64,000 bases of DNA, taken from contig JBBTHR010000019.1 of NCBI GenBank assembly GCA_038060295.1, forward strand, positions 1,582 through 65,581. Direction: 5' to 3'. The stretch's first letter is position 1, and each line of letters begins with the position of its first letter. Under the pieces are notes generated by a model. The model saw only the letters and a list, made by a program, of their open reading frames with translations. It searched no databases and had not been told where the DNA came from. Shown in pieces: positions 7,783-64,000 of this stretch. A program made the position numbers and the translations under genes. Source of the stretch: Candidatus Eiseniibacteriota bacterium (GTDB lineage: Bacteria; Eisenbacteria; RBG-16-71-46; SZUA-252).

Positions 7783-7820
7783 CCACCTCGACCGCCTTGA
7801 TCCCCACAAAGGAGGAACCG

Positions 7821-8555
7821 ATGACGATGAGCGCACCCCGAACTCGGCGTGGGCCCGGGGCCGGCAGGCCGCTCGCCGCGATTCTCTTCTGGTTCGCCGT
7901 CGCCGCGCCCGTCGCCCGCGCGGCCAATCCGGCGCCCGCGCCGCAGGGGGTCCGCTACGTCTACCTGATCCGCCACGGCACGTACGAAAGCGTCGACTCG
8001 CTCGACGATCGCGTCGCGAACGGCGTGAACGCCCTGGGGCGGGAGCAGGCCCGGCTCCTGGGAAAGCGCCTTGCCGGACTCCCCGTGAAGCCTAGCCTCC
8101 TCGTGAGCAGCGATCTGACGCGCGCGCGCGAGACCGCCGACGAGATCGGCGCACTGCTCCACGTGACGGCGGAGCCCGACACGCTGATCGCCGAATGTTT
8201 GCCGCCTTCGTCGCGCCCGGGGTTCGACCAGGAGCACGACGCCGCCGAGATGGCGCTCTGCGCGGCGACCCTCGAGGCCGCCTGGGCCAAGTACTGCCGC
8301 CCCTCGCCCGAGCGGGATGTCCACGACATTCTGGTCTGCCACGGAAACGTGATCCGGTGGTTCGTGAATCGAGCGCTGGGGAACGACGTCCGTCACTGGA
8401 CATCTCTAGACATCGGGAACGGCTCGCTGACCATCCTCGCGGTGCGTCCCGATGGAACGACACGCCTCGTGATGTACAGCGATGTGGGGCACCTGCCGGT
8501 GGAGAAGCAGACTTGGGTGGGACGCGGAGCGGGATGGGGTGCGCCGGCGAAGTAG
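7821..8555 (+). CDS. Histidine phosphatase (phosphoglycerate mutase-like) family protein, secreted
   Basis: A signal peptide followed by the RHG catalytic motif (YLIRHGTY), LTRARETA and VCHGNVIRW. Confidence 0.65.
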   Translation: MTMSAPRTRRGPGAGRPLAAILFWFAVAAPVARAANPAPAPQGVRYVYLIRHGTYESVDSLDDRVANGVNALGREQARLLGKRLAGLPVKPSLLVSSDLTRARETADEIGALLHVTAEPDTLIAECLPPSSRPGFDQEHDAAEMALCAATLEAAWAKYCRPSPERDVHDILVCHGNVIRWFVNRALGNDVRHWTSLDIGNGSLTILAVRPDGTTRLVMYSDVGHLPVEKQTWVGRGAGWGAPAK

Positions 8556-8598
8556 GGCGGCACGCTGGATCCCGCGGGCTAGGTCGGTGCCTGGATCA

Positions 8599-9525: not shown

Positions 9526-9565
9526 GGGGAAGTCCCCGGTTGGCGGCCCCAGGGGCGGGAGGGGG

Positions 9566-10912: not shown

Positions 10913-10923
10913 GGTCGGCACGA

Positions 10924-12543
10924 TCAGGCCCCTCGCGCGAGGGGAAGGCGGATCTGGAACGTGGTTCCCTGACCGGGGGCCGTTTCGACCGCGATGGAGC
11001 CTCCATGCTCGCTGACGATCCGCTCGACGATGGTCAGACCGAGGCCGCTCCCGTGCGCCTTCGTCGTGAATCCCGGAACGAAGAGGCGAGCCCGCTCCTC
11101 GGGAGCGAGCCCCCGGCCGCTGTCGCGGACCAGGAGCAGCGCGTCGCGTCCGGAGCGCGCGGCCGAGAGTGTGACGGTCCCCGCTTCGCCCGCGGCATCG
11201 AGTCCGTTCAGGATCAAGTTGAGCAGGGCCTGGCGAAGCTGCCCGCGATCGGCGGAGAGTTCGAGCGGTTCCGCGGGACGCTCGATCGCGAGGCGGCCCT
11301 CGGTGATCTCGCGGGCATGGAGCGCGGCGAGATCGGCGAAAAGTTCGGAGAGCGCGCACGGGGCCAACTGCGGCGCGGGGAAGCGGGCGAATTCCGAAAA
11401 CTCCTGGAGCAATCGCTTCAGCGTCTCCACCTCGTCCGCGATGGTGCGGGCCGCCTGATCGAGAATCTCGGGGAAGTCGGGGCGCTTCTGCTCGTAGCAC
11501 CGCTTCAGGTCGGCGATCGAGATGGCGATCGGCGTCAGCGGATTCTTCACCTCGTGCGCGACCGCACGCGCCATCTGGCTCCACGCCGCGTGGCGCTCGC
11601 TCACGACCAGTTTCTCGCGGTAGGCGCTCAGGTCGCGGCGCATCCGATCGAGCGCCTCCACGAGCGTCTCCAGCTCCCGCACGCTCCGGAGATGGAGCGG
11701 CTCGTCCCACGCGCCCTCCGCCACCTGGCCGGCGAAGGCAGCGAGGCGCTCCACCGGCTTCGAGACCTGGGAAGACCAGAAGACCCCGAGAATCACGGCG
11801 ATGGCGATGCAGAGCACCGCCAGCACCAGCGTGGCCGCGCGAAGCGCGCCGATCGCGCGATCCGCCGGCTCCGTGGAGGCGAAACCGGTGAGGGTGGCGG
11901 ATCGCTTGGGTCCGATCTCGAGCGCGATCTGCCGCCCCCAGAACCAGCGACCCCCGATGGCGACGCGAGCGTTCGATTCCACGTCCGTGCGCCTCGGTTC
12001 GATCCGCGGATCGAGCGTGTGGGCGACCACGGCGCCGGAAGCGTCGCGGAGGATCAGGTCGATCCCTCCGTTCGTGCCGAGACGCTCGAGCACGGCCCGA
12101 TCGAAGAGGATGCCGCCGTGGACGATCCCCACGACGTCACCCTGGTAGCGGATCGCGGCCTCGGCCTCCTGGGTCAGGCCGGCGCCCGGCCTCTCGCCCG
12201 CGACCACCGTCGCGGAGGCGTCGGTGACGTAGAGAAAATCGAACCCGAGTAGGAACCGCCGTTCGGCCACGTACTCCGACAGCTCCTGCTCGCTGCCGGG
12301 TCGGAGGAGGTAGAGACGCTTCAGTTGCGGATCGCGCCCGAGGATGGCGAGCCGCTCGGTGAGACGCTTGCCTTCGGTCTCCACCTGCTGCTGAAGCGTG
12401 CCGAGCGTGGCGCCCAGCCGCTCGCGTGCCTCCTCCTTCACCATCGACTCGATTCGTGAACCGAGGAGCGCCATCGCGATCGCGAGCGGCACCAGCGCGA
12501 CGACCGAGAAGGCGACGATGAGCCTGGCGCGAAGCGAGTTCAC
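10924..12543 (-). CDS. ntrY: Sensor histidine kinase, NtrY-like
   Basis: Two TM helices flank a periplasmic domain. The HisKA H-box (AHEVKNPLTPI) and HATPase_c (GSGLGLTIVERIV, GQGTTFQIRLP) are present. The GTG start at 12543 is preceded by GGGAGG; the track start at 12567 is a TTG. Confidence 0.75.
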   Translation of the reverse strand: MNSLRARLIVAFSVVALVPLAIAMALLGSRIESMVKEEARERLGATLGTLQQQVETEGKRLTERLAILGRDPQLKRLYLLRPGSEQELSEYVAERRFLLGFDFLYVTDASATVVAGERPGAGLTQEAEAAIRYQGDVVGIVHGGILFDRAVLERLGTNGGIDLILRDASGAVVAHTLDPRIEPRRTDVESNARVAIGGRWFWGRQIALEIGPKRSATLTGFASTEPADRAIGALRAATLVLAVLCIAIAVILGVFWSSQVSKPVERLAAFAGQVAEGAWDEPLHLRSVRELETLVEALDRMRRDLSAYREKLVVSERHAAWSQMARAVAHEVKNPLTPIAISIADLKRCYEQKRPDFPEILDQAARTIADEVETLKRLLQEFSEFARFPAPQLAPCALSELFADLAALHAREITEGRLAIERPAEPLELSADRGQLRQALLNLILNGLDAAGEAGTVTLSAARSGRDALLLVRDSGRGLAPEERARLFVPGFTTKAHGSGLGLTIVERIVSEHGGSIAVETAPGQGTTFQIRLPLARGA

Positions 12544-13454
12544 GGCCCACCGCCTCCCGCGCCGCAATCGACCATGGCGAGGAACGCCGGCGCGCCGAGG
12601 GCGCGAACGTAGGGGCCGAATTCCGGCGGGGTGAGAACGGGACAGTCGGCGGCCAGGTGGATCTGCCAGCGCGGCGCCGCTCGCGTCCGCGCGGAGAGTT
12701 CGCCCGGTTCGAAGAGGGCCACGTCGAGGTCGCCTCTCTCGAGCGCGATCTCTTCCTCGGCCGCGTCGTCGAAAAGGCTCGCGACGATCGTGTCGGGCCA
12801 GGAGGCGGTGCGCCCGAGAGCGCCGCCGCCCGAGGCGGAGACGCCGGAGAGGCTGTCGGTGGAATCGCGCGTCAGCCGGTAGCCGAGCCGTCCCATCGGT
12901 TCCACTCGATAGGCCATGCCCAGGGGCGGCCGGAGCGTCCAGCGGTCGCAGCCCGTGCGATTCGCCGCGCGCCGTCCCGAGGGAAATCCCACGCGAATCG
13001 TGGAGGGCGAGGGAAGCGGCCTGCGCGCCGCCAGAACGCGCAGGCGGTCGAGCTTTCGCTCTCGCGCGAGCGTGCCCGAGACGAGGCGGGCCACGGCCAG
13101 CCCTCCCTCGGCGATGCTCACGATCGGCGCCGCCGCGACCTGCTTCTTGCCGGATCGAATGAGGAGCGTGTCGCCGGGCGCCACGCTGCCCGAATCGCCG
13201 AGGACGACGTAGACGTGATCGGCGCGGTGCCAGACGACGCGCGCGTCGAGCGGCTCAGGAAAACTCGGCGCGGCCGAAGCGGGAAGGGACAGAGAGACGA
13301 GAATCGCGTAAATCGCGAACGCGACCGAGATGGAGAATGAGCCGCGCGATCCGATCCGGCGCTCGATCCGGCGAGTGGACGCCAGGGGACATCGCGTGTC
13401 CAAATTGCCACGCGAACGCAAGGCATTGCCAACACTCGTCTTTGCCATGTTCAT
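12540..13454 (-). CDS. Hypothetical signal-anchored periplasmic protein upstream of ntrYX
   Basis: Start assigned at MNMAKTS (GGGAG is 7 nt upstream). The protein has a hydrophobic anchor (FSISVAFAIYAILVSLSLPASA) and no recognisable motifs. Confidence 0.4.
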   Translation of the reverse strand: MNMAKTSVGNALRSRGNLDTRCPLASTRRIERRIGSRGSFSISVAFAIYAILVSLSLPASAAPSFPEPLDARVVWHRADHVYVVLGDSGSVAPGDTLLIRSGKKQVAAAPIVSIAEGGLAVARLVSGTLARERKLDRLRVLAARRPLPSPSTIRVGFPSGRRAANRTGCDRWTLRPPLGMAYRVEPMGRLGYRLTRDSTDSLSGVSASGGGALGRTASWPDTIVASLFDDAAEEEIALERGDLDVALFEPGELSARTRAAPRWQIHLAADCPVLTPPEFGPYVRALGAPAFLAMVDCGAGGGGP

Positions 13455-51472: not shown

Positions 51473-52438
51473 CTAGCCTCCGATGCTCTGGATCTGGAGC
51501 CGGCGGGGGTCCTCGAGACCGGCGAGAACCGCGTTCCGTTCCGGCTTCGATGCCACGGCCCGGGCGAACGCGTCGCGGAGCGCATCGTCGCCGGCCCCCG
51601 CCGCGAGCAGGGGGACCAGGTCGACCTCCCGCGCGGAGAAGAGGCAGGGGCGGAGCGTTCCCCAGGCGGTGAGCCGCATCCGGCGGCACCCGTCGCAGAA
51701 GGGCTCGGACATCGTCGGGATGAACCCCAGACGCGCGCCCTCGTCGGTGACGAAGCGCGTCGCCACGCCCTCCGGCGCGAGGGGACGAAGCGCGCGCACG
51801 CGGCCGAGGCGCTCGCGCATCGTCCGAGCGCTGAGGAAGAGCCCCGGACTCCAGCCCGTGCCGCCGAGGGGCATGAACTCGATGAACCGCACCTCCACGT
51901 CCCGATCCGCGGCGAAGCGCGCGAAGTCGTCCAATTCGTCCGCGTTCCAACCGTCGAGCGCCACGGTGTTGATCTTCACGTGGTAGCCGAGTTCGCGGGC
52001 GAGTTCGAACGCGCGGAGCGTCGCCGCGAGATCTCCTCCGCGCGTGATCCGTTCGAACCGGTCGGGCCGCAGGCTGTCGATCGAGAGATTGATGCGGCGA
52101 AGGCCCGCGCTGTAGAGCGTCGCCGCGAACCGATCCAGACGACTCCCGTTCGTCGTGATCGAGAGATCCTCGATCCCCGGGAGCGAGCTGAGCCGCTCGA
52201 CGAGCGCGATGATGTCGCGGTACAGGAGCGGTTCGCCGCCGGTCAGCTTGATCTTCCGAACGCCGAGGCCGACGCCGACGGCCGCCAGGCGGAGGAACTC
52301 ATCGGTTTCGAGGTATCGGCGGGCCGGTCCCGGAGCGGGCCCGGGAGGGGGAGCGCAGTAAACGCAGCGGAAGTTGCAGCGGTCGGTGACCGAGATGCGG
52401 AGGTAGTCGATGGTTCGCCCGAATGAATCGACCAGCAT
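51473..52438 (-). CDS. moaA: GTP 3',8-cyclase MoaA (radical SAM)
   Basis: DYLRISVTDRCNFRCVYC and a C-terminal FCDGCRRMRLTAWGTLRPC. Confidence 0.85.
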   Translation of the reverse strand: MLVDSFGRTIDYLRISVTDRCNFRCVYCAPPPGPAPGPARRYLETDEFLRLAAVGVGLGVRKIKLTGGEPLLYRDIIALVERLSSLPGIEDLSITTNGSRLDRFAATLYSAGLRRINLSIDSLRPDRFERITRGGDLAATLRAFELARELGYHVKINTVALDGWNADELDDFARFAADRDVEVRFIEFMPLGGTGWSPGLFLSARTMRERLGRVRALRPLAPEGVATRFVTDEGARLGFIPTMSEPFCDGCRRMRLTAWGTLRPCLFSAREVDLVPLLAAGAGDDALRDAFARAVASKPERNAVLAGLEDPRRLQIQSIGG

Positions 52439-52525
52439 CGATCGCCTCCCGACTCCCGATCCCACGATTGGCACCCGGCGGCCGGTGCAAGCCGGATCGC
52501 CGGCCCAGCCGCCATCTGAACCATC

Positions 52526-52531
52526 TATAAT
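52526..52531 (+). promoter_or_regulatory. Perfect TATAAT hexamer 47 nt upstream of the mocA ATG, in the divergent moaA/mocA intergenic region
   Basis: Direct read. No good -35 hexamer lies at 17 bp spacing. Confidence 0.2.
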
Positions 52532-52577
52532 ACAGCACGACAGGGCAGCCACCCACGTACCCCGGAGCGATCACGAG

Positions 52578-53183
52578 ATGCCGGTTGGCGGCGTGGTCCT
52601 GGCGGCGGGCAGCTCCGCCCGGATGACTCGGCCCAAGCTGCTCCTCCCCTTTAGGGGCAAGCCCCTGGTCTGCCATGCCGTCGCGTGCATGGCCGGGGCG
52701 CCGGTCGCGCCCGTCGTCTGCGTCCTGGGCCACCACGCCCGGGACCTGGAAGCAATACTACGCTCGTACCCCTTCCCACAGCCCCTCCTCCTCCGGAACA
52801 ATGACGACTACCAGTCGGGACGCGCCTCTTCCGTGCGGACAGGGATCGAATCGCTGCCCGAGGAGTGCGCCGCCGCGGTCTTCCTCCCGGGGGACATACC
52901 GCTCCTCCGCTCGGAGGATGTCGCCGCGCTCGTGGCGCGGTTCGAGCGTACCGGCGCGTCCGTCGTCGTGGCGGTGGACGAGCAGGGGGAGCGGGCACAC
53001 CCCGTTCTCTTCGCGCGCGATCTCTTTCCGCGCCTCGCGGCGCTGTCGGGAGACGAGAGCGGCCAGGGGCTGATCCGGGAATACTGGGCGCAAGCCGAGA
53101 AGGTGACCGTGTCGCGATCGCGTTGCGTGGACGTCGACACCGAAGAGGACTACCGGCGCCTCCTCGCCGGGGAGGAAGGCTGA
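52578..53183 (+). CDS. mocA: MobA-like nucleotidyltransferase, probably MocA (Mo-MCD synthesis)
   Basis: GGVVLAAGSSARM...KLLLPFRGKPLV. Its position ahead of xdhC and the CoxL-type subunits supports the call. Confidence 0.65.
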   Translation: MPVGGVVLAAGSSARMTRPKLLLPFRGKPLVCHAVACMAGAPVAPVVCVLGHHARDLEAILRSYPFPQPLLLRNNDDYQSGRASSVRTGIESLPEECAAAVFLPGDIPLLRSEDVAALVARFERTGASVVVAVDEQGERAHPVLFARDLFPRLAALSGDESGQGLIREYWAQAEKVTVSRSRCVDVDTEEDYRRLLAGEEG

Positions 53184-53184
53184 G

Positions 53185-54024
53185 GTGCGGGACTTCTACG
53201 ATCGTGTCACCCGACTGCTGACGGAACACGTCTCCTTCGCGGTCGCCACCATCGTCAAGGTGGGCGGGTCGAGCCCGCGCGATCTCGGCGCGAAGATCAT
53301 CGTATTCCGGGCCGGCACGGTGGAGGGAACGCTGGGGGGCGGGAAACTCGAAGCCCAGGTGATCCGCGACGCGCTGGAATGCCTCGGCCGGCGTTCCGCC
53401 GCGACCAAGTCGTACTGGCTTTCCGACGAAGGGCTTGGAATGAAGTGCGGCGGCACGGTCGAAGTCTACTTCGAACCGGTCACTCCCGCGGCGCGACTCG
53501 TGATCTTCGGAGGCGGCCACGTGGGCCGCGCCATCGCGCGCCTGGCACCGTCGGCCGGCTTCGATGTCGAAGTCGTGGACGACCGCCCCGAGCACCTCGA
53601 CGCCGCGGCGTATCCCCCCGGAGTCCGGCTTCGGCCCACCGATCCGGAATTTCGCGACGGGTTCGAACCCCTTTCTTCCGAGGACTACGCCGTCGTCGTC
53701 ACGCGCGACGCGGCCACGGACGCCGCCCTCGCGGGCCGCCACGCACCCCACTGCGCCTATGTCGGCGTGATGGGGAGCCAGGCCAAGCGGGCCTACATGG
53801 AGCGCACGCTGGCCTCGACGGGAATCTCGAAGCAGGTCTTCGCCCGTGTGCGCTGCCCGATGGGTGTCGACATTGGGGCGGACACGCCGGAGGAGATCGC
53901 CGTGAGCGTCGTGGCCGATCTGATCTCCCTCCGCGCTTCGCGGCGGTCGTCGGCCGCCAAGGCCGCGGGCGAAGCCTCCCCTCGCAAGACGCGCGCCACC
54001 GGGAAGAAGCGGGTCGTCCGATGA
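53185..54024 (+). CDS. xdhC: XdhC/CoxI-family molybdenum hydroxylase maturation factor
   Basis: The XdhC_CoxI N-domain (FAVATIVKVGGSSPRDLGAKII) plus the Rossmann C-domain (LVIFGGGHVGRAIARLA). Confidence 0.75.
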   Translation: MRDFYDRVTRLLTEHVSFAVATIVKVGGSSPRDLGAKIIVFRAGTVEGTLGGGKLEAQVIRDALECLGRRSAATKSYWLSDEGLGMKCGGTVEVYFEPVTPAARLVIFGGGHVGRAIARLAPSAGFDVEVVDDRPEHLDAAAYPPGVRLRPTDPEFRDGFEPLSSEDYAVVVTRDAATDAALAGRHAPHCAYVGVMGSQAKRAYMERTLASTGISKQVFARVRCPMGVDIGADTPEEIAVSVVADLISLRASRRSSAAKAAGEASPRKTRATGKKRVVR

Positions 54025-54833
54025 AGCCAATCGCGGTCGTTCGAGGAGCAGGAGACCTCGCCACGGCCGTCGGCCGAAGGCTTCATCTCTGCGGCTTCTC
54101 CGTCGCCCATCTCGAGATCGCCCAGCCCACCGTCATCCGCCGCACCGTCGCGTTCGCATCGGCCGTGTTTCGAGGGCAAGTCACGGTCGAAGGCGTGGAA
54201 GCCGTCTTGGCTCCGGACGTCGCCGCGGCGCGATGGCTCCTGGAGCAGGGAAGAGTCGCCGTGCTCATCGATCCCGAAGCGGCAAGCATCGAGTCGCTCC
54301 GACCTGTCCTGGTCGTCGACGCCATCCTCGCCAAGAGGAACCTGGGGACGCGCCTCGACATGGCCCCGCGCGTCGTGGCCCTCGGCCCCGGTTTCGAGGC
54401 TGGCGTGGACGTTCACGCCGTGGTGGAAACCTGCCGCGGACACGATCTGGGACGGGTCTACACGTCGGGCGGGGCGCGGCCAGACACCGGTGTTCCGGGC
54501 GCGATCGGAGGCGTCGGCGCGGAACGGGTCCTCCGCGCCCCGGCGGATGGCACGATTCGCCCGTCGAAAGACATCGGGCAGATGGTCAAGCCCCAGGAGC
54601 TCGTCGCCGAAGTCGACGGCGTGCCGCTCCGATCGACGATCGGCGGCGTGCTTCGCGGGATACTCCACTCCGGCCTTTCTGTGTTCAAGGGCCAGAAGGT
54701 GGCCGACGTGGATCCCCGCGGAGACCCCTCGCTCTGCTTCACGATTTCCGACAAGGCCAACGCGGTCGCGGGCGGTGTTCTCGAAGCGGCATTTCGCGAG
54801 GGCGCCGGTCGGTCCCTTGTGACCATGGAGTGA
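54021..54833 (+). CDS. Second Rossmann-type accessory protein, resembling YqeB/EF2563-family molybdenum-hydroxylase system proteins
   Basis: MKPIAVVRGAGDLATAVGRRLHLCGFSVAHLEIAQP. The ATG overlaps the xdhC stop (ATGA). The family assignment is from memory of the N-terminal pattern and is not verified. Confidence 0.45.
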   Translation: MKPIAVVRGAGDLATAVGRRLHLCGFSVAHLEIAQPTVIRRTVAFASAVFRGQVTVEGVEAVLAPDVAAARWLLEQGRVAVLIDPEAASIESLRPVLVVDAILAKRNLGTRLDMAPRVVALGPGFEAGVDVHAVVETCRGHDLGRVYTSGGARPDTGVPGAIGGVGAERVLRAPADGTIRPSKDIGQMVKPQELVAEVDGVPLRSTIGGVLRGILHSGLSVFKGQKVADVDPRGDPSLCFTISDKANAVAGGVLEAAFREGAGRSLVTME

Positions 54834-54839
54834 ACTGAC

Positions 54840-55715
54840 ATGGCGATGCCGGCATTCCAGTTTCATCGTCCCCGCCGACTCGAGGATGCCCTGGCCCTCC
54901 TCGGCGACGCGGGAGCGGACGGGCTGGCGAAAGCGGGAGGCACCGATGTGATGGTGCTCCTGAAGCACGCCGCGGTCGCGCCGCGAGTGATCGTGGGGTT
55001 GTCGGCCCTGCCGGAGCTGAAGGGGATTCGCCTGGAGAATGGCGCCGTCTCGATCGGCGCCGGCACGACCATCGCGGAACTGGAGTCGGATCCGCTCCTG
55101 ACCCGCCACGCGCGTGGCCTCGTCGACGCCGCTCACCGCATGGCGACGGTGCAGATCCGCACGGTCGCCACCGCCGGGGGCAACCTGGCATCCGCCGCGG
55201 CCTGCGGCGATCTGGCGCCGGTCTTGATCGCCCTCGGGGCCACGCTCCACCTCCGCTCCTCGCGCGGGAAGCGCGTCCTGCCGCTATCCGATTTCTTCAC
55301 CGGCCCGCGCACGACGGTGCTTGCTCCCGGAGAGCTCATCACGCGCCTTCAGATCCCGGCCGCGGAGCCCGGGGCCGCTTCCTCCTATGTGAAATTCGGC
55401 TATCGCGGTGGCTCGCAGATCGCCGTGGTGTCGGCGGCCGTGTCGCTCGTCCACGAGAATGGAGCGGCGAAGCGGGTTCGCCTCGTTCTCGGGGCGGTGG
55501 CGCCGGTTCCGTTCAGCGTCAAGGGCGCCTCCGTTCTGGTGGGGCGTCCGGTCGAAGGGCCCGCGCTCGACGCGGCGTGCGCCGCGGCGGCCTCCGAGTG
55601 CCGTCCGATCTCGGACATCCGCGGCAGCGAGTCCTATCGGCGAGCCGTGGTCCCGGTCATCGCGCGCCAGGCACTGGAGCTGGCGTGGCGGCGGAGCAGA
55701 GGAATTGAATCCTAA
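54840..55715 (+). CDS. Molybdenum hydroxylase FAD-binding (medium, CoxM/XdhB-like) subunit
   Basis: GGTDVMVLLK...IGAGTTIAELE...TAGGNLASAAACGDLAPVLIALGA. Confidence 0.8.
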   Translation: MAMPAFQFHRPRRLEDALALLGDAGADGLAKAGGTDVMVLLKHAAVAPRVIVGLSALPELKGIRLENGAVSIGAGTTIAELESDPLLTRHARGLVDAAHRMATVQIRTVATAGGNLASAAACGDLAPVLIALGATLHLRSSRGKRVLPLSDFFTGPRTTVLAPGELITRLQIPAAEPGAASSYVKFGYRGGSQIAVVSAAVSLVHENGAAKRVRLVLGAVAPVPFSVKGASVLVGRPVEGPALDAACAAAASECRPISDIRGSESYRRAVVPVIARQALELAWRRSRGIES

Positions 55716-58557
55716 CGTCGAGCAGAGCCGGACAACGGCGACCGAAGCGACGGAAATCCTCCTCAGGCTCCGCGTGAATCGGCGCGACGTCTCGGTGGCC
55801 GCGCGCCCGAACGCGACCCTTCTCTCCGTCCTGCGGGACACGCTCCAGATGACCGGCACCAAGTGCGGCTGCGGCGAGGGAGACTGCGGAGCCTGCACCG
55901 TGCTCCTCGACGGCGAACAGGTGAACTCCTGTCTCTTCCTCGCGGCGGAGGCGCAGGGGACCGAGATCACGACGATCGAGGGCCTGTCCCCGAATGGCGC
56001 CCTCCATCCGGTTCAGAAGGCGTTCGTCGAGACCGGTTCGATCCAGTGCGGTTTCTGCAGTCCCGGAATGATCCTGTCGGCGAAGGCGCTCCTCGATCGA
56101 AATCCCGACCCGACCGACGAGGAAATCCGGAACGCGCTCGCCGGAAACCTCTGCCGCTGCACGGGGTACGTGCGGATCTTGGAAGCGGTGCGGCGCGTGG
56201 CGCACCCCGAGCTGCCGCGGCGCGTGGAGGAGGGCGAGAGCGACGACACCTTCTCCGTCGTGGGGAAGAGCGTTCCCAAGAAGGACGCCGCCGACAAGGC
56301 GACGGGGAAGGCGACCTACACCGGCGACTTCCGCCTCCCCGGGATGCTCCGTGGGAAGCTGCTCGGGAGCCCGCATCCCCACGCCAAGATTCTCTCCGTG
56401 GACACCAGCGAGGCGGAAGCGCTCCCCGGCGTCCACGCGGTCATCACGGCGAAGGACGTCCCGGACGTTCCGTACGGCGTGAGCCCGGCCCGTTACGACG
56501 AGCAGGTGCTCGCCGGCGACCGGGTCCGCCACGTGGGCGACGCCGTCGCTGCCGTGGCCGCCGAGGACGACGACACGGCGGAACGCGCCCTGGAGCTGAT
56601 CCGCGTCGAGTACGAGATCCTCCCCGGCGTCTTCGGGATCGAGGAGGCGCTCGACCCTGGCGCGCCGCAACTGCACGACGCCTATCCGCGGAACATCAAC
56701 ACCGAGATCCATCACGATTTCGGCGACGTCGACAAGGCGTTCGCCGAGGCGGACCTCGTCCGGGAGGACGTCTTCCGGGGCCAGCGGGCCATGCAGATCC
56801 CGCTTGAGCCGCACGTTTCGCTCGCGCGCGTCGAGTCGGACGGCCGCATCACCATCTGGACCGCGAACCAGGCGCCGCACTACGTCCAGCATCAGCTCTC
56901 GCGCGTGCTGGACGTGCCGATGGGCCGGATCCGAGTCGTGAAGCCGGCCATGGGGGGTGGATTCGGCGGAAAGGCCGAGGCCACCAGCCTCGATTTCTGC
57001 TCCGTGATCCTGGCGAAGAAGACGGGACGCCCCGTGCTCATGGAGTTCTCCCGGAAGGAGACCTTCCTGCACGGCCGGGGACGCCACGCGCAGGTCATCC
57101 GGCTCAAGACGGGCGTGCGCAAGGACGGCACGCTCCTCGCGGTCCAGGCGGACATCACGCTCGACGGCGGGGCCTATACCAGTTTCGGAATCATCACCTC
57201 GTACTATTCGGGCGTCATGCTCACGACGCCGTACCGCCTCCCCAACTTCCGGTTCGACGGGAAGCGCGTCTACACGAACCTCCCGGCCTGCGGGGCGATG
57301 CGAGGAAACGGCACGCCACAGCCGCGATTCGCCTTCGAGAGCCAGCTCGACCTGATCGCCGCGGATCTCGGCCTCGATCCGATCGAATTGCGACGGCGGA
57401 ACGCGCTTCACACGAACGATCTCACGGTGAACGAGTTCCAGATCACTTCGTGCGAGTTCCAGCAGTGCCTCGATCTCGTGGAGGAACGATCGGGCTGGAA
57501 GGAGAAGCGGGGAAAGCTCCCCTTCGGGAAGGGGATCGGAATCGCCTGCGGCTGTTTCATCTCGGGCGCGGGGTACCCGATCTACCGGAGTTCGTTCCCC
57601 CATTCCTCGGCGATCGTGCGACTGAGCGAGGACGGTACCTCGGCCATGGTCTTCGCGGGCGCCCCCGACATCGGCCAGGGATCCGACACGGTCCTTTGCC
57701 AGATGGCCGCGGAGGAACTTGGCCTGCGCTACGAGGACGTGAGCATCATCTCGAGCGACTCGGCCGTCACTCCGACCGACCTCGGGGCCTACGCGTCGCG
57801 CATCACCTACTTCGCGGGCAACGCGGTTCGAGACGCCGCGGCCGCCGCGAGGCGCGCCGTGGCGGAGGTCGTGGCGGAGGAGTGGGGCCTTCCGGTGGAG
57901 GAAGTCTCCTTCCGGAATGGGCATTTCCACTCGCCGGACGGCTCCAGAACCCGCTCGATCCAGGAGGCCGCCGCGCTTGCCTTCGGCAGGCGCGGACCGG
58001 TCGTCGGCAAGGGGGAGTATTCACCACCGCCTCTCGGGGGAAAATTCAAGGGGGCTCCGATCGGAACGTCGCCGGCCTACTCCTTCTGCGCGCAGGTGGC
58101 GGAAGTCGAAGTCGACACCGAGACCGGCACCGTTCGGGTGACCGACTTCTACGACGCCCACGACTGCGGAACCGTCATCAATCCCATGAACCTCCACGGA
58201 CAGGTGGAGGGATCGCTGGTCATGGGGATGGGCGAGAGCCTCTGGGAAGAAGTGATTCACAAGGACGGCAGGATCGTGAATCCGAACCTGCACGACTACC
58301 TGATCCCCACGGCCGCCGACGCGCCGCGCATCCATTCGTTCGTCGTGAAGTCGTACGACCCGGGTGGCCCGTTCGGCGCCAAAGAGGTCGGCGAAGGGGC
58401 GTCGCTCCCCGTGATGGGGGCGGTGGCCAATGCCGTGGCGAACGCGATCGGCGTCCGCCTGACCGAGTTGCCGATCACGCCGGAGAAGGTGCTGCGCGCC
58501 CTGGGAAAGATACCCCCGGACGCGGAGGGCCCCGGCACGGCGGTCTGTCGACTGTGA
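55705..58557 (+). CDS. Fused [2Fe-2S] small subunit plus molybdopterin-binding large subunit of a xanthine-oxidase-family hydroxylase
   Basis: The TTG start has an AGAGGAA SD upstream. The N-terminal ferredoxin domains (CGCGEGDCGACTV and CGFCSPGM...CRCTGY) continue directly into the Mo-cofactor domains. The protein is about 950 aa. The first 99 codons of the track ORF 55408-58557 are frame read-through over the FAD subunit. Confidence 0.8.
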   Translation: MNPNVEQSRTTATEATEILLRLRVNRRDVSVAARPNATLLSVLRDTLQMTGTKCGCGEGDCGACTVLLDGEQVNSCLFLAAEAQGTEITTIEGLSPNGALHPVQKAFVETGSIQCGFCSPGMILSAKALLDRNPDPTDEEIRNALAGNLCRCTGYVRILEAVRRVAHPELPRRVEEGESDDTFSVVGKSVPKKDAADKATGKATYTGDFRLPGMLRGKLLGSPHPHAKILSVDTSEAEALPGVHAVITAKDVPDVPYGVSPARYDEQVLAGDRVRHVGDAVAAVAAEDDDTAERALELIRVEYEILPGVFGIEEALDPGAPQLHDAYPRNINTEIHHDFGDVDKAFAEADLVREDVFRGQRAMQIPLEPHVSLARVESDGRITIWTANQAPHYVQHQLSRVLDVPMGRIRVVKPAMGGGFGGKAEATSLDFCSVILAKKTGRPVLMEFSRKETFLHGRGRHAQVIRLKTGVRKDGTLLAVQADITLDGGAYTSFGIITSYYSGVMLTTPYRLPNFRFDGKRVYTNLPACGAMRGNGTPQPRFAFESQLDLIAADLGLDPIELRRRNALHTNDLTVNEFQITSCEFQQCLDLVEERSGWKEKRGKLPFGKGIGIACGCFISGAGYPIYRSSFPHSSAIVRLSEDGTSAMVFAGAPDIGQGSDTVLCQMAAEELGLRYEDVSIISSDSAVTPTDLGAYASRITYFAGNAVRDAAAAARRAVAEVVAEEWGLPVEEVSFRNGHFHSPDGSRTRSIQEAAALAFGRRGPVVGKGEYSPPPLGGKFKGAPIGTSPAYSFCAQVAEVEVDTETGTVRVTDFYDAHDCGTVINPMNLHGQVEGSLVMGMGESLWEEVIHKDGRIVNPNLHDYLIPTAADAPRIHSFVVKSYDPGGPFGAKEVGEGASLPVMGAVANAVANAIGVRLTELPITPEKVLRALGKIPPDAEGPGTAVCRL

Positions 58558-58609: not shown

Positions 58610-59875
58610 ATGATCGAACCCGCGGCATCGGACCTGATCTACGAGTGGAACCAAGGGAACGATCCCGGAGACCGCCCGGCCGGAGTGGTGGAGGTCGCCG
58701 ACGAGACGCTCCGAGACGGGCTCCAGTGTCCCTCCGTGGCGGATCCGTCCATTGAGCAGAAGATCCAAATGCTCCATTTCCAGGCGCGCCTCGGCGTGCA
58801 CGGGGTGGATCTCGGACTGCCCGGCGCCGGCCCGCGTGTCCAGGCTTCGGTGCTCGCCCTGGCCAGGGAGATGGTCTCCGCCAAACTGCCCATGGAGCCC
58901 TACTGCGCGGCGCGGACGCACGTCGCCGACATCGACCCGATCATCGACGTGGTGCAGAAGACCGGGCTCGCGATCCACGCGGCGACCTTCCTCGGCTCGA
59001 GCCCCATTCGCCACTACGCCGAAGGGTGGGATCTGGACCGGCTCCTGAGGACGACGGAGGAGGCGGTCGGTTATGCGGTCCGGCACGGTCTCCAGGTCAT
59101 GTTTGTGACCGAGGACACGACGCGGGCGAAGCCGGAGATGCTCCGTCAGATCTACACGGCGGCGATCCATGCCGGTGCGAATCGAATCTGTGTCGCCGAC
59201 ACGGTCGGCTACGTGACGCCGCAGGGCATCACACGGCTGATCCGGTTCATTCGCTCCGTCGTGGATGCGACGGGTGCGAAGATCCCCATCGATTTCCACG
59301 GGCACCGGGATCGTGGCCTCTGCATCGCCAACGTGCTCGCGGCCTTCGCCGCCGGAGCCGACCGGGCGCATGGGACGATCCTCGGCATCGGCGAGCGGGT
59401 GGGGAACGCGCCGCTCGATCTTCTCCTGATCAATCTGAAGCTCCTCGGATGGCTCGACCGGGATCTGACGGCGCTGCCGGAGTATTGCGACCTGGTCTCG
59501 CGCGCCTGCGGCGTGCCGATCCCGCCGAGCTACCCGGCGTTCGGTCGGGACGCGTTCCGCACCGCGACGGGTGTGCACGCGGCGGCCGTGATCAAGGCGA
59601 AGAAGAAGGGGGACGCGGCCCTGGCGGACCAAGTCTACTCGAGCATCCCGGCCAGCATGCTGGGACTCACACAGGTGATCGATGTGGGACCGATGTCGGG
59701 CGAATCGAACGTGGTCTACTGGCTGGAGCATCACGGGTACGAAGCCGACCGCCCTCTCGTGGAGCACCTCTTCCGATTGGCGAAGGAGCGGGATCGCGTC
59801 TTCGAGAGCACGGAGTTGGAGGCGGCAATCGCGAAATTCCGCGCGTCGCGGAGCGTCGCGGGGTCGGCGTCATAG
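58610..59875 (+). CDS. HMGL-like / 2-isopropylmalate-homocitrate synthase family (DRE-TIM metallolyase) protein lacking the LeuA regulatory domain
   Basis: VEVADETLRDGLQ...IDFHGHRDRGLCIANVLAAFAAGADRAHGTILGIGERVGN (the HxH metal site). Confidence 0.7.
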   Translation: MIEPAASDLIYEWNQGNDPGDRPAGVVEVADETLRDGLQCPSVADPSIEQKIQMLHFQARLGVHGVDLGLPGAGPRVQASVLALAREMVSAKLPMEPYCAARTHVADIDPIIDVVQKTGLAIHAATFLGSSPIRHYAEGWDLDRLLRTTEEAVGYAVRHGLQVMFVTEDTTRAKPEMLRQIYTAAIHAGANRICVADTVGYVTPQGITRLIRFIRSVVDATGAKIPIDFHGHRDRGLCIANVLAAFAAGADRAHGTILGIGERVGNAPLDLLLINLKLLGWLDRDLTALPEYCDLVSRACGVPIPPSYPAFGRDAFRTATGVHAAAVIKAKKKGDAALADQVYSSIPASMLGLTQVIDVGPMSGESNVVYWLEHHGYEADRPLVEHLFRLAKERDRVFESTELEAAIAKFRASRSVAGSAS

Positions 59876-59928: not shown

Positions 59929-61890
59929 CTAGCGTCGTTCGGGGCGACTCGTTTCAGTTGGCCGGGTGGGGACAGGCGGGGGAAGGAAGGCCACATCGAG
60001 ATCCTGACCCGAATCAGCGGATCTTACGGTGCCTCCGTCGGGCGCCTCGGCTCCGCGCTGAACCACGAGCGCCTCCATGGCGTAGTACTCCGGCAGTCCG
60101 AGCTGATCGACCAGCCGCGCCGTTCCCTTGTTGCGCTCTTCCACGCGCTGCCAGAACTCGCGCTCGTCGACCCCGGGGAACGGCGCGCGGTCCTTCTGGC
60201 TCTGGTGCTTGAAGATGGCGCTGATCTTCAGCCGTAGTTCCTCCTCCGACATCGGTACGAGAATGTCGGCTTCGGCGATGGGCCATTCCTCCCAGGCTCC
60301 GCGATAGAGCCAGGTCTCCGGCGCCTCGCCGGAGTACCGCTCGAGCGCCAGTTCGATCGCCTCCTTGCACATGCGGTGCGTGCCATGCGGATCGGAGAGG
60401 TCTCCGGCGACGAGGATGATCTCCGGTCGATGCTCCTCGAGCAGGGAGAGGATGATCTCGACGTCCCGATCTCCGACCGGATCCTTCCGGACGCTCCCCG
60501 TCTGGTAGAAGGGGAGGTTCAGAAACCGGGACTGGTCCGGCCGCAGGCGCAGCGTCTCGATGGCGGATACCGCCTCGACCTCGCGGAGCCGGCGCTTGAG
60601 CATCTGGACCGTTTCGGAGTCCACCTGCCCCGGCTGCTTACGGTTTAGGAATTGCTCGACCTCCTCCAGTAGCGACCGCAGGCGGTCGTTCCCGTATTCG
60701 AAATCGCTCGCGGTTCGGCGTACGAATTCGAGGTAGCGGCGGACCTCGTGATCGAAGACGGCGATGTTGCCCGACGTCATGTACGCCACGACGATCTCGT
60801 TCTCGTTCTGGCGGAGCTTGTGGAGCGTTCCTCCAGCGGAGATGACGTCGTCGTCAGGGTGGGGGGAGAAGACAACGATGCGCCGCCCCCGGGGGAGCTT
60901 GCTGCGTCCGCGGATCTTGGTGCCGAGCGCGTTGAAGACGACCCCGTTCAGCGCGGCCGAGGAGCCGTGGCGGGCGAGGAGCGCGCCCAGATGGTGTTCG
61001 CGATAATCGCCGTCGGCCAGCTTGAGCACGGACTTCCCGGTGACTTGGGAGAGCCAGACGACCGCCTCGATCGCGAGGAGCGGGGTCCACTCGATTTCGC
61101 GGCGCAGCCAGGGCGTCTTCAGGCGGGTCAGATCCGCCGCGGCCGCAGGGTCGAGATAGACAGTCGCATCCGGGTGCTGTTGGAGATACGTCGCGGCCAC
61201 GGAGCGGTCGATGTCGCCCTCGACCGAGCGCCTCACGATCGCGGCCTTGTGCTCGCCCGTCGCGATGAGCGCGACCTCTCTGGCCTCGAGGATTGTCGCG
61301 ACGCCCATCGTGATCGCCTCGTTCGGAACGTTTTCGGTTCCGAAGAAGTCCGACGCGGCGACGCGGCGTGTGATCGTGTCGAGGACGACGAGGCGCGTGC
61401 GCGAACCGGGGCTCGATCCGGGCTCGTTGAACCCGATGTGTCCCGTCTGCCCGATTCCCAGAATCTGGAAGTCGATGCCGCCGGCATCCGCGATCGCCCG
61501 TTCGTAGTCGCGACAGTGCTCATTGACCGCGTCTCGGGGAAGGTCTCCGCGCGGAATGTGCACGTTTCGCGGGTCGATGTTGACGTGGTCGAAGAAATTC
61601 TCCCACATGAAGCGGTGGTAGCTATGAACGTTGTCCGGCGACATGGGGTAGTACTCGTCGAGATTGAACGTCTTGACCCGGGACCAATCGAGACCTTCCT
61701 CGCGGTGCATCCGGATCAGTTCTCGGTAGACACCGATCGGCGTCGAGCCGGTGGCGAGCCCGAGCACGGGCGTTCGTCCGCTCGCGTGCCGGTCACGGAT
61801 GATCTCGGAAACGCGCCGCGCGATGAGCTTCGCGATGAGGTCGTACGACTCCGTCGCGAGGACGGGGATTCGTTCGGAGTTCTCGTCCAT
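59929..61890 (-). CDS. nagB: Glucosamine-6-phosphate deaminase (NagB) fused to a PIG-L/LmbE-family deacetylase
   Basis: The N-terminus has LGLATGSTP...NLDEYY...ILGIGQTGHIGFNEPGS. The C-terminus has VVFSPHPDDDVISAGGTL and HPDH...DH motifs. Confidence 0.75.
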   Translation of the reverse strand: MDENSERIPVLATESYDLIAKLIARRVSEIIRDRHASGRTPVLGLATGSTPIGVYRELIRMHREEGLDWSRVKTFNLDEYYPMSPDNVHSYHRFMWENFFDHVNIDPRNVHIPRGDLPRDAVNEHCRDYERAIADAGGIDFQILGIGQTGHIGFNEPGSSPGSRTRLVVLDTITRRVAASDFFGTENVPNEAITMGVATILEAREVALIATGEHKAAIVRRSVEGDIDRSVAATYLQQHPDATVYLDPAAAADLTRLKTPWLRREIEWTPLLAIEAVVWLSQVTGKSVLKLADGDYREHHLGALLARHGSSAALNGVVFNALGTKIRGRSKLPRGRRIVVFSPHPDDDVISAGGTLHKLRQNENEIVVAYMTSGNIAVFDHEVRRYLEFVRRTASDFEYGNDRLRSLLEEVEQFLNRKQPGQVDSETVQMLKRRLREVEAVSAIETLRLRPDQSRFLNLPFYQTGSVRKDPVGDRDVEIILSLLEEHRPEIILVAGDLSDPHGTHRMCKEAIELALERYSGEAPETWLYRGAWEEWPIAEADILVPMSEEELRLKISAIFKHQSQKDRAPFPGVDEREFWQRVEERNKGTARLVDQLGLPEYYAMEALVVQRGAEAPDGGTVRSADSGQDLDVAFLPPPVPTRPTETSRPERR

Positions 61891-62037
61891 GCTTGATCTT
61901 ATCGGCCTCCGCGACGCGGACATTGATGATGGCCCGCCGGCCGCCGCCGCCGGGCAATTGCCGATCTTGCGCCCAGCGTCAACCGCGCTAGACTCAACCA
62001 CTTGCGGGGGTGGTCGGCCCTCGGGGCGAAGCCGCGG

Positions 62038-62067
62038 CAAGGAGGTAACGTCTCATGAGCCTCCTTG
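62038..62067 (+). promoter_or_regulatory. 8-bp perfect hairpin CAAGGAGG / CCTCCTTG with a 14-nt loop containing an ATG, inside the 517-bp leader of the KamA-like gene
   Basis: Direct read (stem 62038-62045 and 62060-62067). The GGAGG is paired with the CCTCC. Confidence 0.25.
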
Positions 62068-62407
62068 GGCTTGGTGCATCGAGTGTCCAACCATGGCCAC
62101 CGATCGCCCCCGCCCCGCACGGTTCGGTCTCCCACTCGTCGTGGACGCCTGAAGTCGCGCCGCCACCATCCCGGCCATCCACGCGGCGCCGCGCCGATCC
62201 CCCAGACTTGCCCCAAGATCACCGCACTCGACGGCGGATCCACCCTTCCCCCTGCTACCTCCTGCTACTTTTGTGCCAATTGCCAGCGTCCAACCAGGGT
62301 GGGAACCTCACCGCACGGTGGGCGCTGTCCCGCCGATGGCGGTTCCGAGCGTCGATGGCCCGAGCACGGATAAGCTCCTCCCTGGCATGGGTTCTTGGAG
62401 AATTGAC

Positions 62408-64000
62408 ATGTCGAACACCAAAGAGGTCAATCCCGTGAGTTCCTCGGTAGAACCGATCTCCTCCACGGTCACTCCGGCGGACATCGAAGCGATGATGACC
62501 CGTTTCGGTTACTCGCCCGAGACGCGGCAGATCATCGCGACGGAGAACCTGCTGCCGGCCGGGCTGCTCAGTCGGTTGCACGCGACGTATCCGCAGCACT
62601 CCGGGCTTCTCGAGCGGGGGAAGACCCTGTTCAGCGATTCCGATCACTACTCCGAGCTGGAGGGGTTCCGGCGTGTCGCCGAGATCCTGGAGCAGCACGG
62701 AATCCACCTCGGCGACATGACCGAGCGGGAGTTGTTCGTCGAAGTGTACCGCTTCAAGGTGTCGCGTCACGCGCTCAACAGTATCAACTGGAAGAACTAC
62801 CAGCGCGATTCGATGTTCCAGCTCATGTTCCCGCAGCCGGGAATGATGAAGGAGGAACTGCTCGACGCGTACACCGCCACGGCATCACCCGAAGAGCGGA
62901 CACGCATCGCCAGCGAGTACGTTCACAAGACCAACCCCCACGATGGCCATCAACTCCTGAACAAGCCGTGGATCGAACAGGACGACGGCGGGATCGACGT
63001 CGTCGAAGGCAGTCAGCACAAGTACCCGCAGTGCCAGCTCGTCTTCGACCGGACGACGCAGGAGTGTTTCGCCTTTTGCACCTACTGCTTCCGTCACGCG
63101 CAGGTCCGCGGTGACGAGGACATGTTCGTGCAGGAGGACGTCGCGCAGATCCACGACTACCTTCGCGGCCACCCTGAAGTCACCGATCTGCTCATCACCG
63201 GCGGGGACGCGGGATACATGCCCGTCGAACGACTGCGGCAGTACGTCATGCCGATCGTCGAAGACCGCCGCTTGCTGCAGGTGCGCACGGTCCGCCTCGG
63301 CTCACGCATGCTGACGTATCAGCCCGAGAGGGTCCTCACGCGGCAGTACGAGAAGATGCTGGCCCTGTTCGACGTCGTGCACGACAACGGGGTTCAATTG
63401 TCGTGGATGGCGCATTTCTCCACGCCACGGGAGCTGTTGAATCCCAGCACGATCGCCGCCATCCGCAGGCTCCAGCGACACGGCGTCGTGGTGCGCAGCC
63501 AAAGCCCCATCATGAACCACATCAGCCTGTTCACCGATGACCGGGGCCACGTGGACGTCCAGCGTTCGGCGCAGAACTGGATCGACCTGGCCAACGTGCT
63601 TGGGACGCTGCTGGTGCGCTTCCATTCGATGTACTGCGCCCGCGCGACCGGCGAGCATCACTATTTCACCGCGTCGCTGGCCGACATCGAGAAGATCGCC
63701 AACCTGGTCTACCGTTCGCTCTCATCGCTCAACCGGCCGTCGAGGTACATCACGATGACCACGTCCGCCGGCAAGGTCTCCATCCTCGGGACAGCCGAAG
63801 TCGGCGGGCAGACGGCCTTCGCGCTGAAGTTCAACGAGAGCCGGAACATGGCATGGATGGATCGCGTATTCCTCGCCAAGTACGACAGCCAGACGAACCG
63901 CGTCGACTTCCTGACGCCCTTCGACACGTCCGAGTTCTTCTTCGAGAAGGAGCTGCACGAGATCGAGCAGAAGCTGATCGACGTGCACCATCGGCGCCGG
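62408..64000 (+). CDS. KamA-family radical-SAM/PLP aminomutase (lysine 2,3-aminomutase-like) with an N-terminal extension of about 75 aa. It is 3'-partial (no stop in the window) and absent from the supplied ORF track.
   Basis: Translated by hand; GGAG lies 8 nt before the ATG. The C-x3-C-x2-C motif (CFAFCTYCFRH) follows HKYPQCQLVFDRT. LITGGDAGYMP, VRLGSRMLTYQPERV and the PLP-Lys region TMTTSAGK match KamA landmarks. At least 531 codons are open. Confidence 0.8.
   Translation, partial: MSNTKEVNPVSSSVEPISSTVTPADIEAMMTRFGYSPETRQIIATENLLPAGLLSRLHATYPQHSGLLERGKTLFSDSDHYSELEGFRRVAEILEQHGIHLGDMTERELFVEVYRFKVSRHALNSINWKNYQRDSMFQLMFPQPGMMKEELLDAYTATASPEERTRIASEYVHKTNPHDGHQLLNKPWIEQDDGGIDVVEGSQHKYPQCQLVFDRTTQECFAFCTYCFRHAQVRGDEDMFVQEDVAQIHDYLRGHPEVTDLLITGGDAGYMPVERLRQYVMPIVEDRRLLQVRTVRLGSRMLTYQPERVLTRQYEKMLALFDVVHDNGVQLSWMAHFSTPRELLNPSTIAAIRRLQRHGVVVRSQSPIMNHISLFTDDRGHVDVQRSAQNWIDLANVLGTLLVRFHSMYCARATGEHHYFTASLADIEKIANLVYRSLSSLNRPSRYITMTTSAGKVSILGTAEVGGQTAFALKFNESRNMAWMDRVFLAKYDSQTNRVDFLTPFDTSEFFFEKELHEIEQKLIDVHHRRR

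Follow-up and report, generated by a model that had tools for sequence, protein, structure and literature searches.

Lysine 2,3-aminomutase (KamA) of Clostridium subterminale, whose structure is available as 2a5h, is the closest solved relative of the gene described here, which lies at the downstream edge of a 64,000-nucleotide stretch of DNA from a Candidatus Eiseniibacteriota bacterium (contig JBBTHR010000019.1, positions 1,582 to 65,581; hereafter 'the window'). In KamA, the epsilon-ammonium group of lysine is held by Asp293 and Asp330, and a C-terminal zinc site is formed by Cys375, Cys377 and Cys380 (2a5h). Arg134 is the partner of the substrate alpha-carboxylate in the same structure. 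Glutamate 2,3-aminomutase (Eam), also of the KamA type, is reported to carry Lys at the Asp293 position (Ruzicka and Frey 2007, cited in 10.1101/2025.11.21.689712) and has Asn in place of Asp330.

Several described pathways serve as points of metabolic comparison. In lysine fermentation, the route runs from lysine by way of 3,6- and 3,5-diaminohexanoate and requires B12-dependent KamDE, Kdd and Kce, and its Kat variant employs an acyl-CoA beta-transaminase (PMC3149608). The lower beta-ketoadipate pathway (PcaIJ and PcaF) consumes 3-oxoadipate that arises by aromatic ring cleavage. Canonical catabolism of 2-aminoadipate is oxidative and passes through 2-oxoadipate, then glutaryl-CoA or 2-hydroxyglutarate.

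From the comparisons presented below, the window gene probably encodes an L-2-aminoadipate 2,3-aminomutase that heads a five-gene catabolic operon leading to succinyl-CoA and acetyl-CoA. With slightly less assurance, we also lean towards the broader proposal that this undescribed L-2-aminoadipate-specific aminomutase and its four partners constitute a new redox-neutral, O2-independent branch of lysine catabolism, present in more than ten phyla and including culturable Photobacterium. What is new is not the catalytic machinery, which is familiar, but the family with its domain additions, its predicted substrate and the putative pathway. The analysis shows the ORF and its cofactor motifs, a KamA fold, the residue changes, an operon with its family assignments and the recurrent neighbours; the substrate, step order and flux direction are inferred from protein families and gene neighbourhoods. 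A preliminary description, made from this DNA alone, had held that the substrate could not be assigned. This is correct for the protein sequence by itself; however, the conserved neighbourhood in 80 genomes narrows the choice strongly towards L-2-aminoadipate.

Direct translation of positions 62408 to 64000 on the forward strand yields 531 codons with zero stops, preceded by a ribosome-binding site (RBS; Table 1), in a frame whose third-position G+C content (0.84) is typical for genes of the window (67.6% GC). As the preliminary description had pointed out, this uninterrupted open reading frame (ORF) is absent from the computed ORF track, and its explanation is also borne out, in that the listing program skips ORFs that run off the end of the source for want of a stop codon. 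Less apt was its remark that the C-terminus is still open at the window edge. In contig L083, whose DNA is 94-96% identical to the window, the gene stops six codons past the edge (after HHRRQRTGARA), and homologues are 532-553 amino acids long. Therefore, the window gene is essentially complete. Its closest homologue (P0001) has the same MSNTK start. The N-terminal extension over KamA, previously put at about 75 residues, instead measures approximately 93-120 residues, with residue 198 aligning to KamA 105 and residue 154 to KamA 32. The first ~105 residues are missing from KamA and also from the nearest relatives of 400-480 amino acids, whose alignments begin at about residue 106.

The original assignment to the KamA family stands with respect to the general type of radical S-adenosylmethionine (SAM) and pyridoxal 5'-phosphate (PLP) enzyme. 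In the PDB, KamA alone gives a significant sequence match (2a5h, E 1.5e-13, residues 198-372), and a family profile agrees. A model generated by AlphaFold from an alignment of 40 family members (mean predicted local distance difference test score, pLDDT, 81; predicted template modelling score, pTM, 0.86) adopts the KamA fold, as evident by a Foldseek search of the PDB in which 2a5h ranks first (E 3e-13, template modelling score 0.62 on the target, 18-19% identity) and the runners-up are generic radical-SAM barrels with E values above 1e-4. The assignment does not extend to the family as curated. The protein scores 65.4 bits against 199.2 for the KamA family (TIGR00238), and among the equivalogs 66.7 against 525.4 for AblA lysine 2,3-aminomutase (TIGR03820), 57.7 against 650 for glutamate 2,3-aminomutase (TIGR04368), 69.3 against 600 for arginine 2,3-aminomutase of the BlsG type (TIGR04468) and 45.9 against 369.3 for EpmB (TIGR03821). 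The NCBIfam aminomutase models align through residue 459-460. The Pfam Radical_SAM model (PF04055) gives 18.6 bits (E 0.0022) against a gathering threshold of 29.5; a precomputed PF04055 match is present in a few homologues. Since every curated threshold is missed, the window protein, despite its KamA fold, belongs to a separate family and is not a canonical KamA.

All of the cofactor motifs named in the preliminary description (CxxxCxxC, GGD and the PLP-lysine) are found (Table 1). In distant relatives (alignment A3), Gly265 and Asp267 are invariant and Gly266 is conserved in at least 90%. Together with the fold and the Arg134 equivalent, these motifs constitute the likeness to KamA, and by analogy the radical-SAM/PLP 1,2-amino-shift mechanism is presumably common to both enzymes. 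In contrast, the two positions that correspond to the lysine-binding Asp residues of KamA have lost their acidic side chains. Thr449 occupies the Asp330 position, and the Asp293 position is occupied by Ala411 or Arg412, both of which are invariant among 35 diverse members. Addition to a superfamily alignment with MAFFT --add places Arg412 at Asp293, whereas hhalign (probability 98%) and Smith-Waterman alignment place Ala411 there and Arg412 at Leu294. These three methods were used beyond residue 372, where the HMMER local alignment to KamA ends; the KamA reference sequence was confirmed against the PDB alignment for residues 105-265 only, and elsewhere by its published residue numbering. Loss of the acidic pair, along with the invariant Arg, argues against lysine or arginine as the substrate, for which the proposed check of Asp293 and Asp330 equivalents is negative, and would be compatible with an anionic side chain.

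Eam resembles the window protein in being of the KamA type, in using an acidic amino acid (a prediction for the window protein) and in having a basic residue at or beside the Asp293 position. It differs in that Lys and Asn stand where Arg (or Ala-Arg) and Thr are found here, and the gene context in the present case suggests a C6 rather than a C5 dicarboxylate. A further difference from KamA concerns the C-terminus, which is dissimilar and lacks the CxCxxC zinc site; the window protein has no Cys beyond residue 410, and the last residues of P0001 likewise contain none. One homologue (P0033) carries a 55-residue insertion between window residues ~190 and 191, in the loop before QHKY where model confidence is low. 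This insertion may be a gene-calling or assembly artefact.

The genes that follow the aminomutase-like gene were compared in 80 loci identified by a genome scan, of which 58 are informative, meaning that they include at least 4.3 kb of downstream sequence. Genes for CoA-transferase subunits A and B, a class III transaminase (Aminotran_3) and a thiolase are colinear downstream in 44 of these 58 loci. Ten more carry the CoA-transferase and transaminase genes without the full four-gene set, and four have other contexts. The order CoA_trans, CoA_trans, Aminotran_3 and thiolase, on the same strand and with short gaps or overlaps, is seen in a metagenome-assembled genome (MAG) labelled 'Candidatus Eisenbacteria' (L001) and in a Tepidisphaeraceae locus (L002). 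In L083, the stop codon of the aminomutase-like gene marks the start of the gene for CoA-transferase subunit A. Judging from these related contigs, it is almost certain that the window gene is the first of a five-gene operon whose remainder lies past position 64000. With the operon catabolic in 54 of the 58 informative loci, and with no elongation factor P (EF-P) or EpmA context seen, an EF-P-type protein substrate, which had been listed as a candidate, is unsupported.

The CoA-transferase subunits pass the 3-oxoacid CoA-transferase A and B models (TIGR02429, 351 bits against 128.5; TIGR02428, 302 against 244), and their closest solved relatives are succinyl-CoA:3-ketoacid CoA-transferases. 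The L002 thiolase passes the pcaF (3-oxoadipyl-CoA thiolase) equivalog TIGR02430 with 677.7 bits against 597, as well as NF006551 (691 against 605), and it matches beta-ketoadipyl-CoA thiolases in the PDB with 557-568 bits (6pca, 568) compared with ~312 for acetoacetyl-CoA thiolases. The transaminase belongs to the glutamate-1-semialdehyde-aminomutase-like (HemL-like) branch of class III, where it scores 320 bits, below the cut-off. Among solved structures it is nearest to the Sphaerobacter thermophilus omega-transaminase 6k8h (412 bits), an enzyme that converts beta- and gamma-amino acids (PMC10589169), and the named beta-transaminases 2yku, 6iz9 and 4ao9 likewise match. A PcaF-type thiolase points to 3-oxoadipyl-CoA, and the alpha-amino acid that would give 3-oxoadipate is 2-aminoadipate.

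Two actinobacterial loci (L004 and L005, 78-79% identical) carry CoA-transferase A and B and transaminase genes with no thiolase gene within 8 kb downstream. A different arrangement is seen in L055 (positions 6630-12832 of that locus), where a HemL-like transaminase, the aminomutase-like gene, a short-chain dehydrogenase/reductase (SDR), a gamma-glutamyl-cyclotransferase-like (GGACT-like) protein and a 608-amino-acid protein with a B12-binding domain occur together, without a CoA-transferase or thiolase.

In the pathway that we propose, a [4Fe-4S] cluster and SAM would serve as the radical initiator and PLP on Lys456 would carry the migrating amino group, and the enzyme would turn L-2-aminoadipate into 3-aminoadipate through the type of 1,2-amino shift that KamA performs. 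The beta-transaminase would then use 2-oxoglutarate or pyruvate to convert 3-aminoadipate to 3-oxoadipate, the CoA-transferase would exchange CoA between succinyl-CoA and 3-oxoadipate to give 3-oxoadipyl-CoA and succinate, and the PcaF-type thiolase would cleave 3-oxoadipyl-CoA with CoA to yield succinyl-CoA and acetyl-CoA. The succinyl-CoA released by thiolysis would re-prime the transferase, making the CoA donor self-regenerating. The net reaction would convert 2-aminoadipate, an amino acceptor and CoA to succinate, acetyl-CoA and an amino acid, needing neither a redox step nor oxygen. Such a scheme is in keeping with hosts that live anaerobically or facultatively and with a first enzyme that is sensitive to oxygen. 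The steps may instead begin with CoA transfer, followed by a Kat-like acyl-CoA beta-transaminase, an order that matches that of the genes, but the transferase is of the 3-oxoacid type.

This putative route shares parts with each of the described pathways. As in the lower beta-ketoadipate pathway, the transferase and thiolase pass the TIGR02429, TIGR02428 and TIGR02430 models, but here 3-oxoadipate would arise through an aminomutase and a beta-transaminase rather than from aromatic compounds, and the locus flanks showed no pcaBCDGH or cat genes. The series of aminomutase, beta-amino compound, class III transaminase, beta-keto compound and thiolysis, along with a CoA-transferase of the AtoDA/ScoAB type, recalls lysine fermentation and its Kat variant. 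However, KamDE, Kdd and Kce are absent, the operon differing in this from that of KamA, and the carbon skeleton would be a dicarboxylate. Canonical 2-aminoadipate catabolism has the same entry metabolite, and its upstream enzymes (lysine 6-transaminase, LAT; the saccharopine-dehydrogenase family; pipecolate-oxidase-like proteins; and L-piperideine-6-carboxylate, P6C, dehydrogenase) adjoin the gene in six loci. In contrast to the canonical oxidative routes, the predicted route is redox-neutral and leads directly to succinate and acetyl-CoA.

When the flanking ORFs of all 80 loci are clustered, regulators are the only genes outside the five-gene set with wide recurrence (divergent LysR in 22 loci, XRE-cupin in five). 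A gene for P6C dehydrogenase, which makes L-2-aminoadipate, is nearby in six loci of different classes, and in five of these six it is joined by LAT, by a protein of the saccharopine-dehydrogenase family or by an FAD oxidase of the DAO family (Table 1), to which the pipecolate oxidase AmaA belongs. The NF050084 equivalog was scored for the P6C dehydrogenases of L056 and L043, and the other four are tblastn matches with 52-66% identity. Of the two loci with a DAO-family oxidase, L027 and L014, a Liv-type importer is confirmed in L027 only. By a rough estimate, which assumes flanks of ~14 genes and genomes of ~4000 genes with a single P6C dehydrogenase gene each, chance alone would place ~0.3 such neighbours in the 80 loci, compared with the six seen. 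Three different entry routes meet at one metabolite, 2-aminoadipate.

A BCCT transporter and a gene resembling dihydropyrimidine dehydrogenase (DPD) were also considered as substrate clues and were dropped, since each occurs only in four related gammaproteobacterial loci. The transporter gene lies ~2-4 kb upstream in L020, L026, L031 and L035, and the DPD-like Fe-S flavoprotein gene is by the operon in L018, L020, L026 and L035. Both may reflect lineage-specific synteny.

Other interpretations must be weighed against this assignment. The protein could be a divergent lysine 2,3-aminomutase whose product, beta-lysine, would be processed at its epsilon end by LAT-like and P6C-dehydrogenase-like enzymes to 3-aminoadipate and then enter the same lower pathway, as might be suspected from the automatic names 'lysine 2,3-aminomutase' (JGI, UniRef), from KamA being the closest solved structure and from the lysine-catabolic genes adjoining in six loci. 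We consider this quite improbable, given that both epsilon-ammonium-binding Asp residues are lost and that the equivalog score is 67 against 525. Moreover, the LAT of L056 and the P6C dehydrogenases of L056 and L043 pass equivalogs of canonical alpha-lysine enzymes, the five-gene core, self-sufficient only from 2-aminoadipate, stands alone in most loci, and no kamDE, kdd or kce genes were seen. Glutamate has similarly slim prospects. A new lineage of glutamate 2,3-aminomutase would form beta-glutamate and then 3-oxoglutarate, which could be activated and cleaved to malonyl-CoA and acetyl-CoA, or decarboxylated to acetoacetate and then cleaved. Such an enzyme would account for the basic residue at or beside the Asp293 position, a beta-transaminase, 3-oxoacid CoA-transferase and thiolase would also suit a C5 dicarboxylate, and most loci are without a dedicated transporter, as expected for a central metabolite. 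However, the thiolase is a PcaF equivalog, the aminomutase scores 58 against 650 with the glutamate model, the recurrent neighbours make 2-aminoadipate rather than glutamate, and cleavage of 3-oxoglutaryl-CoA would yield no succinyl-CoA for the transferase. Another substrate (such as 2-aminopimelate, diaminopimelate, a D-amino acid or a neutral amino acid, for example leucine or 2-aminobutyrate), or radical chemistry of a different kind from the 2,3-amino shift, is unlikely but deserves somewhat more attention. The family is far from characterised aminomutases (~18% identity to KamA) and sits in a large uncharacterised clade, and contexts differ, as exemplified by L055 (SDR, GGACT-like and B12-binding proteins) and by the BCCT transporter in four gammaproteobacterial loci. 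Nevertheless, all aminomutase cofactor residues are invariant, 56 of the 58 informative loci have a beta-type transaminase next to the gene, and neutral substrates imply an acetoacetyl-CoA or branched-chain thiolase rather than the PcaF type present here. There is very little chance that the operon runs in the biosynthetic direction, from succinyl-CoA and acetyl-CoA through 3-oxoadipate and 3-aminoadipate to 2-aminoadipate, for the alpha-aminoadipate lysine route or a secondary metabolite. The thiolase, CoA-transferase, transaminase and aminomutase reactions are reversible in principle, and a gene resembling isopropylmalate or homocitrate synthases is directly upstream in the window lineage. 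However, divergent LysR or XRE-cupin regulators and the Liv-type importer of L027 are typical of catabolic operons, the linked P6C dehydrogenase catalyses an effectively irreversible aldehyde oxidation towards 2-aminoadipate, and neither LysW/LysX nor alpha-aminoadipate reductase genes turned up in the flanks.

The assignment to L-2-aminoadipate also has evidence to contend with. The equivalent of Asp293 is ambiguous by one position, model confidence is low at the active-site loops (residues 178-240 and 414-418), and the same Arg is present in many distant relatives without the operon, such that it is no unique marker of specificity. PcaF-type thiolases and 3-oxoacid transferases can take related dicarboxylic substrates. 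Approximately 74 of the 80 loci have no nearby gene for forming 2-aminoadipate, nor does the window, and the four downstream genes of this genome lie outside the window, their presence being deduced from near-identical or related contigs.

If L-2-aminoadipate is indeed the substrate, the enzyme would add a new substrate class to the lysine, arginine and glutamate used by radical-SAM 2,3-aminomutases, and the degradation of lysine, pipecolate and 2-aminoadipate would have an end route that needs no electron acceptor. Such a route would explain how lysine carbon reaches succinate and acetyl-CoA in sediment and gut anaerobes and in facultative marine bacteria. It would also supply a naturally occurring enzyme for producing, from lysine, 3-aminoadipate and 3-oxoadipate, compounds that have been proposed as intermediates in engineered routes to adipic acid. 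Our literature search, which covered subscription journals thinly and may have missed a recent report, found no published account of the enzyme or the route; the only matches were metabolomics mentions, a meteorite-chemistry mention and a misprint in a reference.

Table 1. Features of the aminomutase-like gene, loci with linked P6C dehydrogenase genes and neighbouring features of the window (coordinates are window positions; numbers paired by 'against' are bit scores and cut-offs).
Feature	Position	Strand	Remarks
Coding sequence, residues 1-531 of a ~537-amino-acid KamA-fold radical-SAM/PLP enzyme, predicted L-2-aminoadipate 2,3-aminomutase	62408..64000	+	Window edge cuts ~6 codons before the stop
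RBS GGAG	62397..62400	+	7 nt 5' of the ATG at 62408, read from sequence
Family-specific N-terminal region, residues 1 to ~105	62408..62722	+	Helical; pLDDT 88-97 from residue 21 in the model
CxxxCxxC, Cys220/Cys224/Cys227, [4Fe-4S] ligands	63065..63088	+	KamA Cys125/129/132; invariant in 35 members
Arg229	63092..63094	+	Aligned with KamA Arg134; invariant in 35 members
GGD motif, Gly265-Gly266-Asp267	63200..63208	+	KamA SGGDA; invariant in 35 members
Ala411-Arg412, end of barrel strand	63638..63643	+	KamA Asp293 position, Asp lost; strand is residues 404-411 in the model
Thr449	63752..63754	+	KamA Asp330 position by alignment; Thr or Ser in the family
Lys456	63773..63775	+	KamA PLP-binding Lys337; family-invariant, nearly so in distant relatives; PLP binding predicted
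L056 (Desulfobulbia)			P6C dehydrogenase (NF050084, 789 against 730) and L-lysine 6-transaminase (TIGR03251, 675 against 521), immediately upstream in the same orientation
L043 (Alphaproteobacteria)			Aminomutase-like gene, HemL-like transaminase, P6C dehydrogenase (NF050084, 817 against 730), saccharopine-dehydrogenase-family protein
L032 (Deltaproteobacteria)			P6C dehydrogenase, five-gene operon, saccharopine-dehydrogenase-family protein, on one strand
L027 (Desulfuromonadales)			Divergent LysR, DAO-family FAD oxidase, P6C dehydrogenase, Liv-type ABC importer
L014 (SAR324)			Divergent LysR, DAO-family FAD oxidase, partial P6C dehydrogenase ~7 kb upstream at the locus edge
L067 (Rubrivivax)			P6C dehydrogenase immediately after the transaminase
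Segment missing from L083	59866..62354		2.49 kb
Glucosamine-6-phosphate-deaminase-like/PIG-L fusion gene	59929..62040	-	NF002557, 868 against 384
Isopropylmalate/citramalate/homocitrate-synthase superfamily gene	58610..59875	+	421 amino acids; below all cut-offs (best 212 against 517)
Molybdoenzyme cluster	51473..58557
FAD subunit of the molybdoenzyme	54840..55715
Large subunit of the molybdoenzyme, ORF as listed	55408..58557		Fused to a 2Fe-2S domain

The family to which the window protein belongs is widespread. A word-indexed search returned more than 1300 relatives, the best 120 of which are 66-93% identical and nearly all 498-583 amino acids long. The 80 loci of the genome scan (56-91% identity) span Actinomycetes, 'Eisenbacteria', Verrucomicrobiota, Planctomycetota, Sumerlaeota, Bacteroidota, Ignavibacteria, Acidobacteriota, Desulfobacterota, SAR324, Clostridia and the Alpha-, Beta- and Gammaproteobacteria, including cultured Photobacterium, for a spread of more than ten phyla at 55-93% identity. 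Family members from this genus include WP_255391889.1 of Photobacterium atrarenae and WP_265696947.1 of P. obscurum. All members that were looked up in RefSeq (four Photobacterium accessions and several MAG entries) are labelled 'hypothetical protein', and the 'lysine 2,3-aminomutase' label found in JGI and in one UniRef entry is contradicted by the residue test described above.

When representatives at 50% identity are searched exhaustively, the family corresponds to approximately one full-length representative, at 61% identity. The next is a protein of 608 amino acids at 42%, followed by many of 400-480 amino acids at 25-38% that are without the first ~105 residues. At E<=1e-3, the search defines a KamA-like clade of 1454 such representatives without functional assignment. 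NCBIfam gives these distant relatives only a sub-threshold KamA match, the best E value among the 43 in alignment A3 being not below 1e-43. Members of the 400-480-amino-acid clade (P0128-P0262) display QHKY followed by CxxxCxxC, TGGD, an 'R-D-T-G' strand end and the PLP-lysine. Among the three distant relatives examined for gene context (P0124, P0129 and P0134), no shared context was found.

The other genes near the window gene, which specify a xanthine-dehydrogenase-type Mo enzyme, an HMGL-like protein and a NagB/PIG-L protein, were considered as conserved partners and rejected on the basis of tblastn searches of the 80 loci. The xanthine-dehydrogenase type is present only in L017, and the HMGL type of the window is present in none. 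The NagB/PIG-L fusion gene lies on the segment missing from L083, which is otherwise colinear and 94-96% identical on both sides, so that the segment is either an insertion in the window or a deletion in L083. In L083, just 60 bp separate the HMGL-like gene from the aminomutase-like gene, which follows it in the same orientation. A link between the HMGL-like gene of the window (58610..59875) and 2-aminoadipate metabolism, by way of homocitrate-synthase-like chemistry, is possible but unsupported.

Farther upstream, the molybdoenzyme cluster comprises MoaA (on the reverse strand), a MobA-like NTP transferase, XdhC, the FAD subunit and the large subunit. The large subunit scores 956 bits against 994.55 with the 4-hydroxybenzoyl-CoA reductase alpha model, above its score in any xanthine dehydrogenase model. 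Its true start is probably located after position 55408, because the listed start overlaps the FAD-subunit ORF by ~300 nt.

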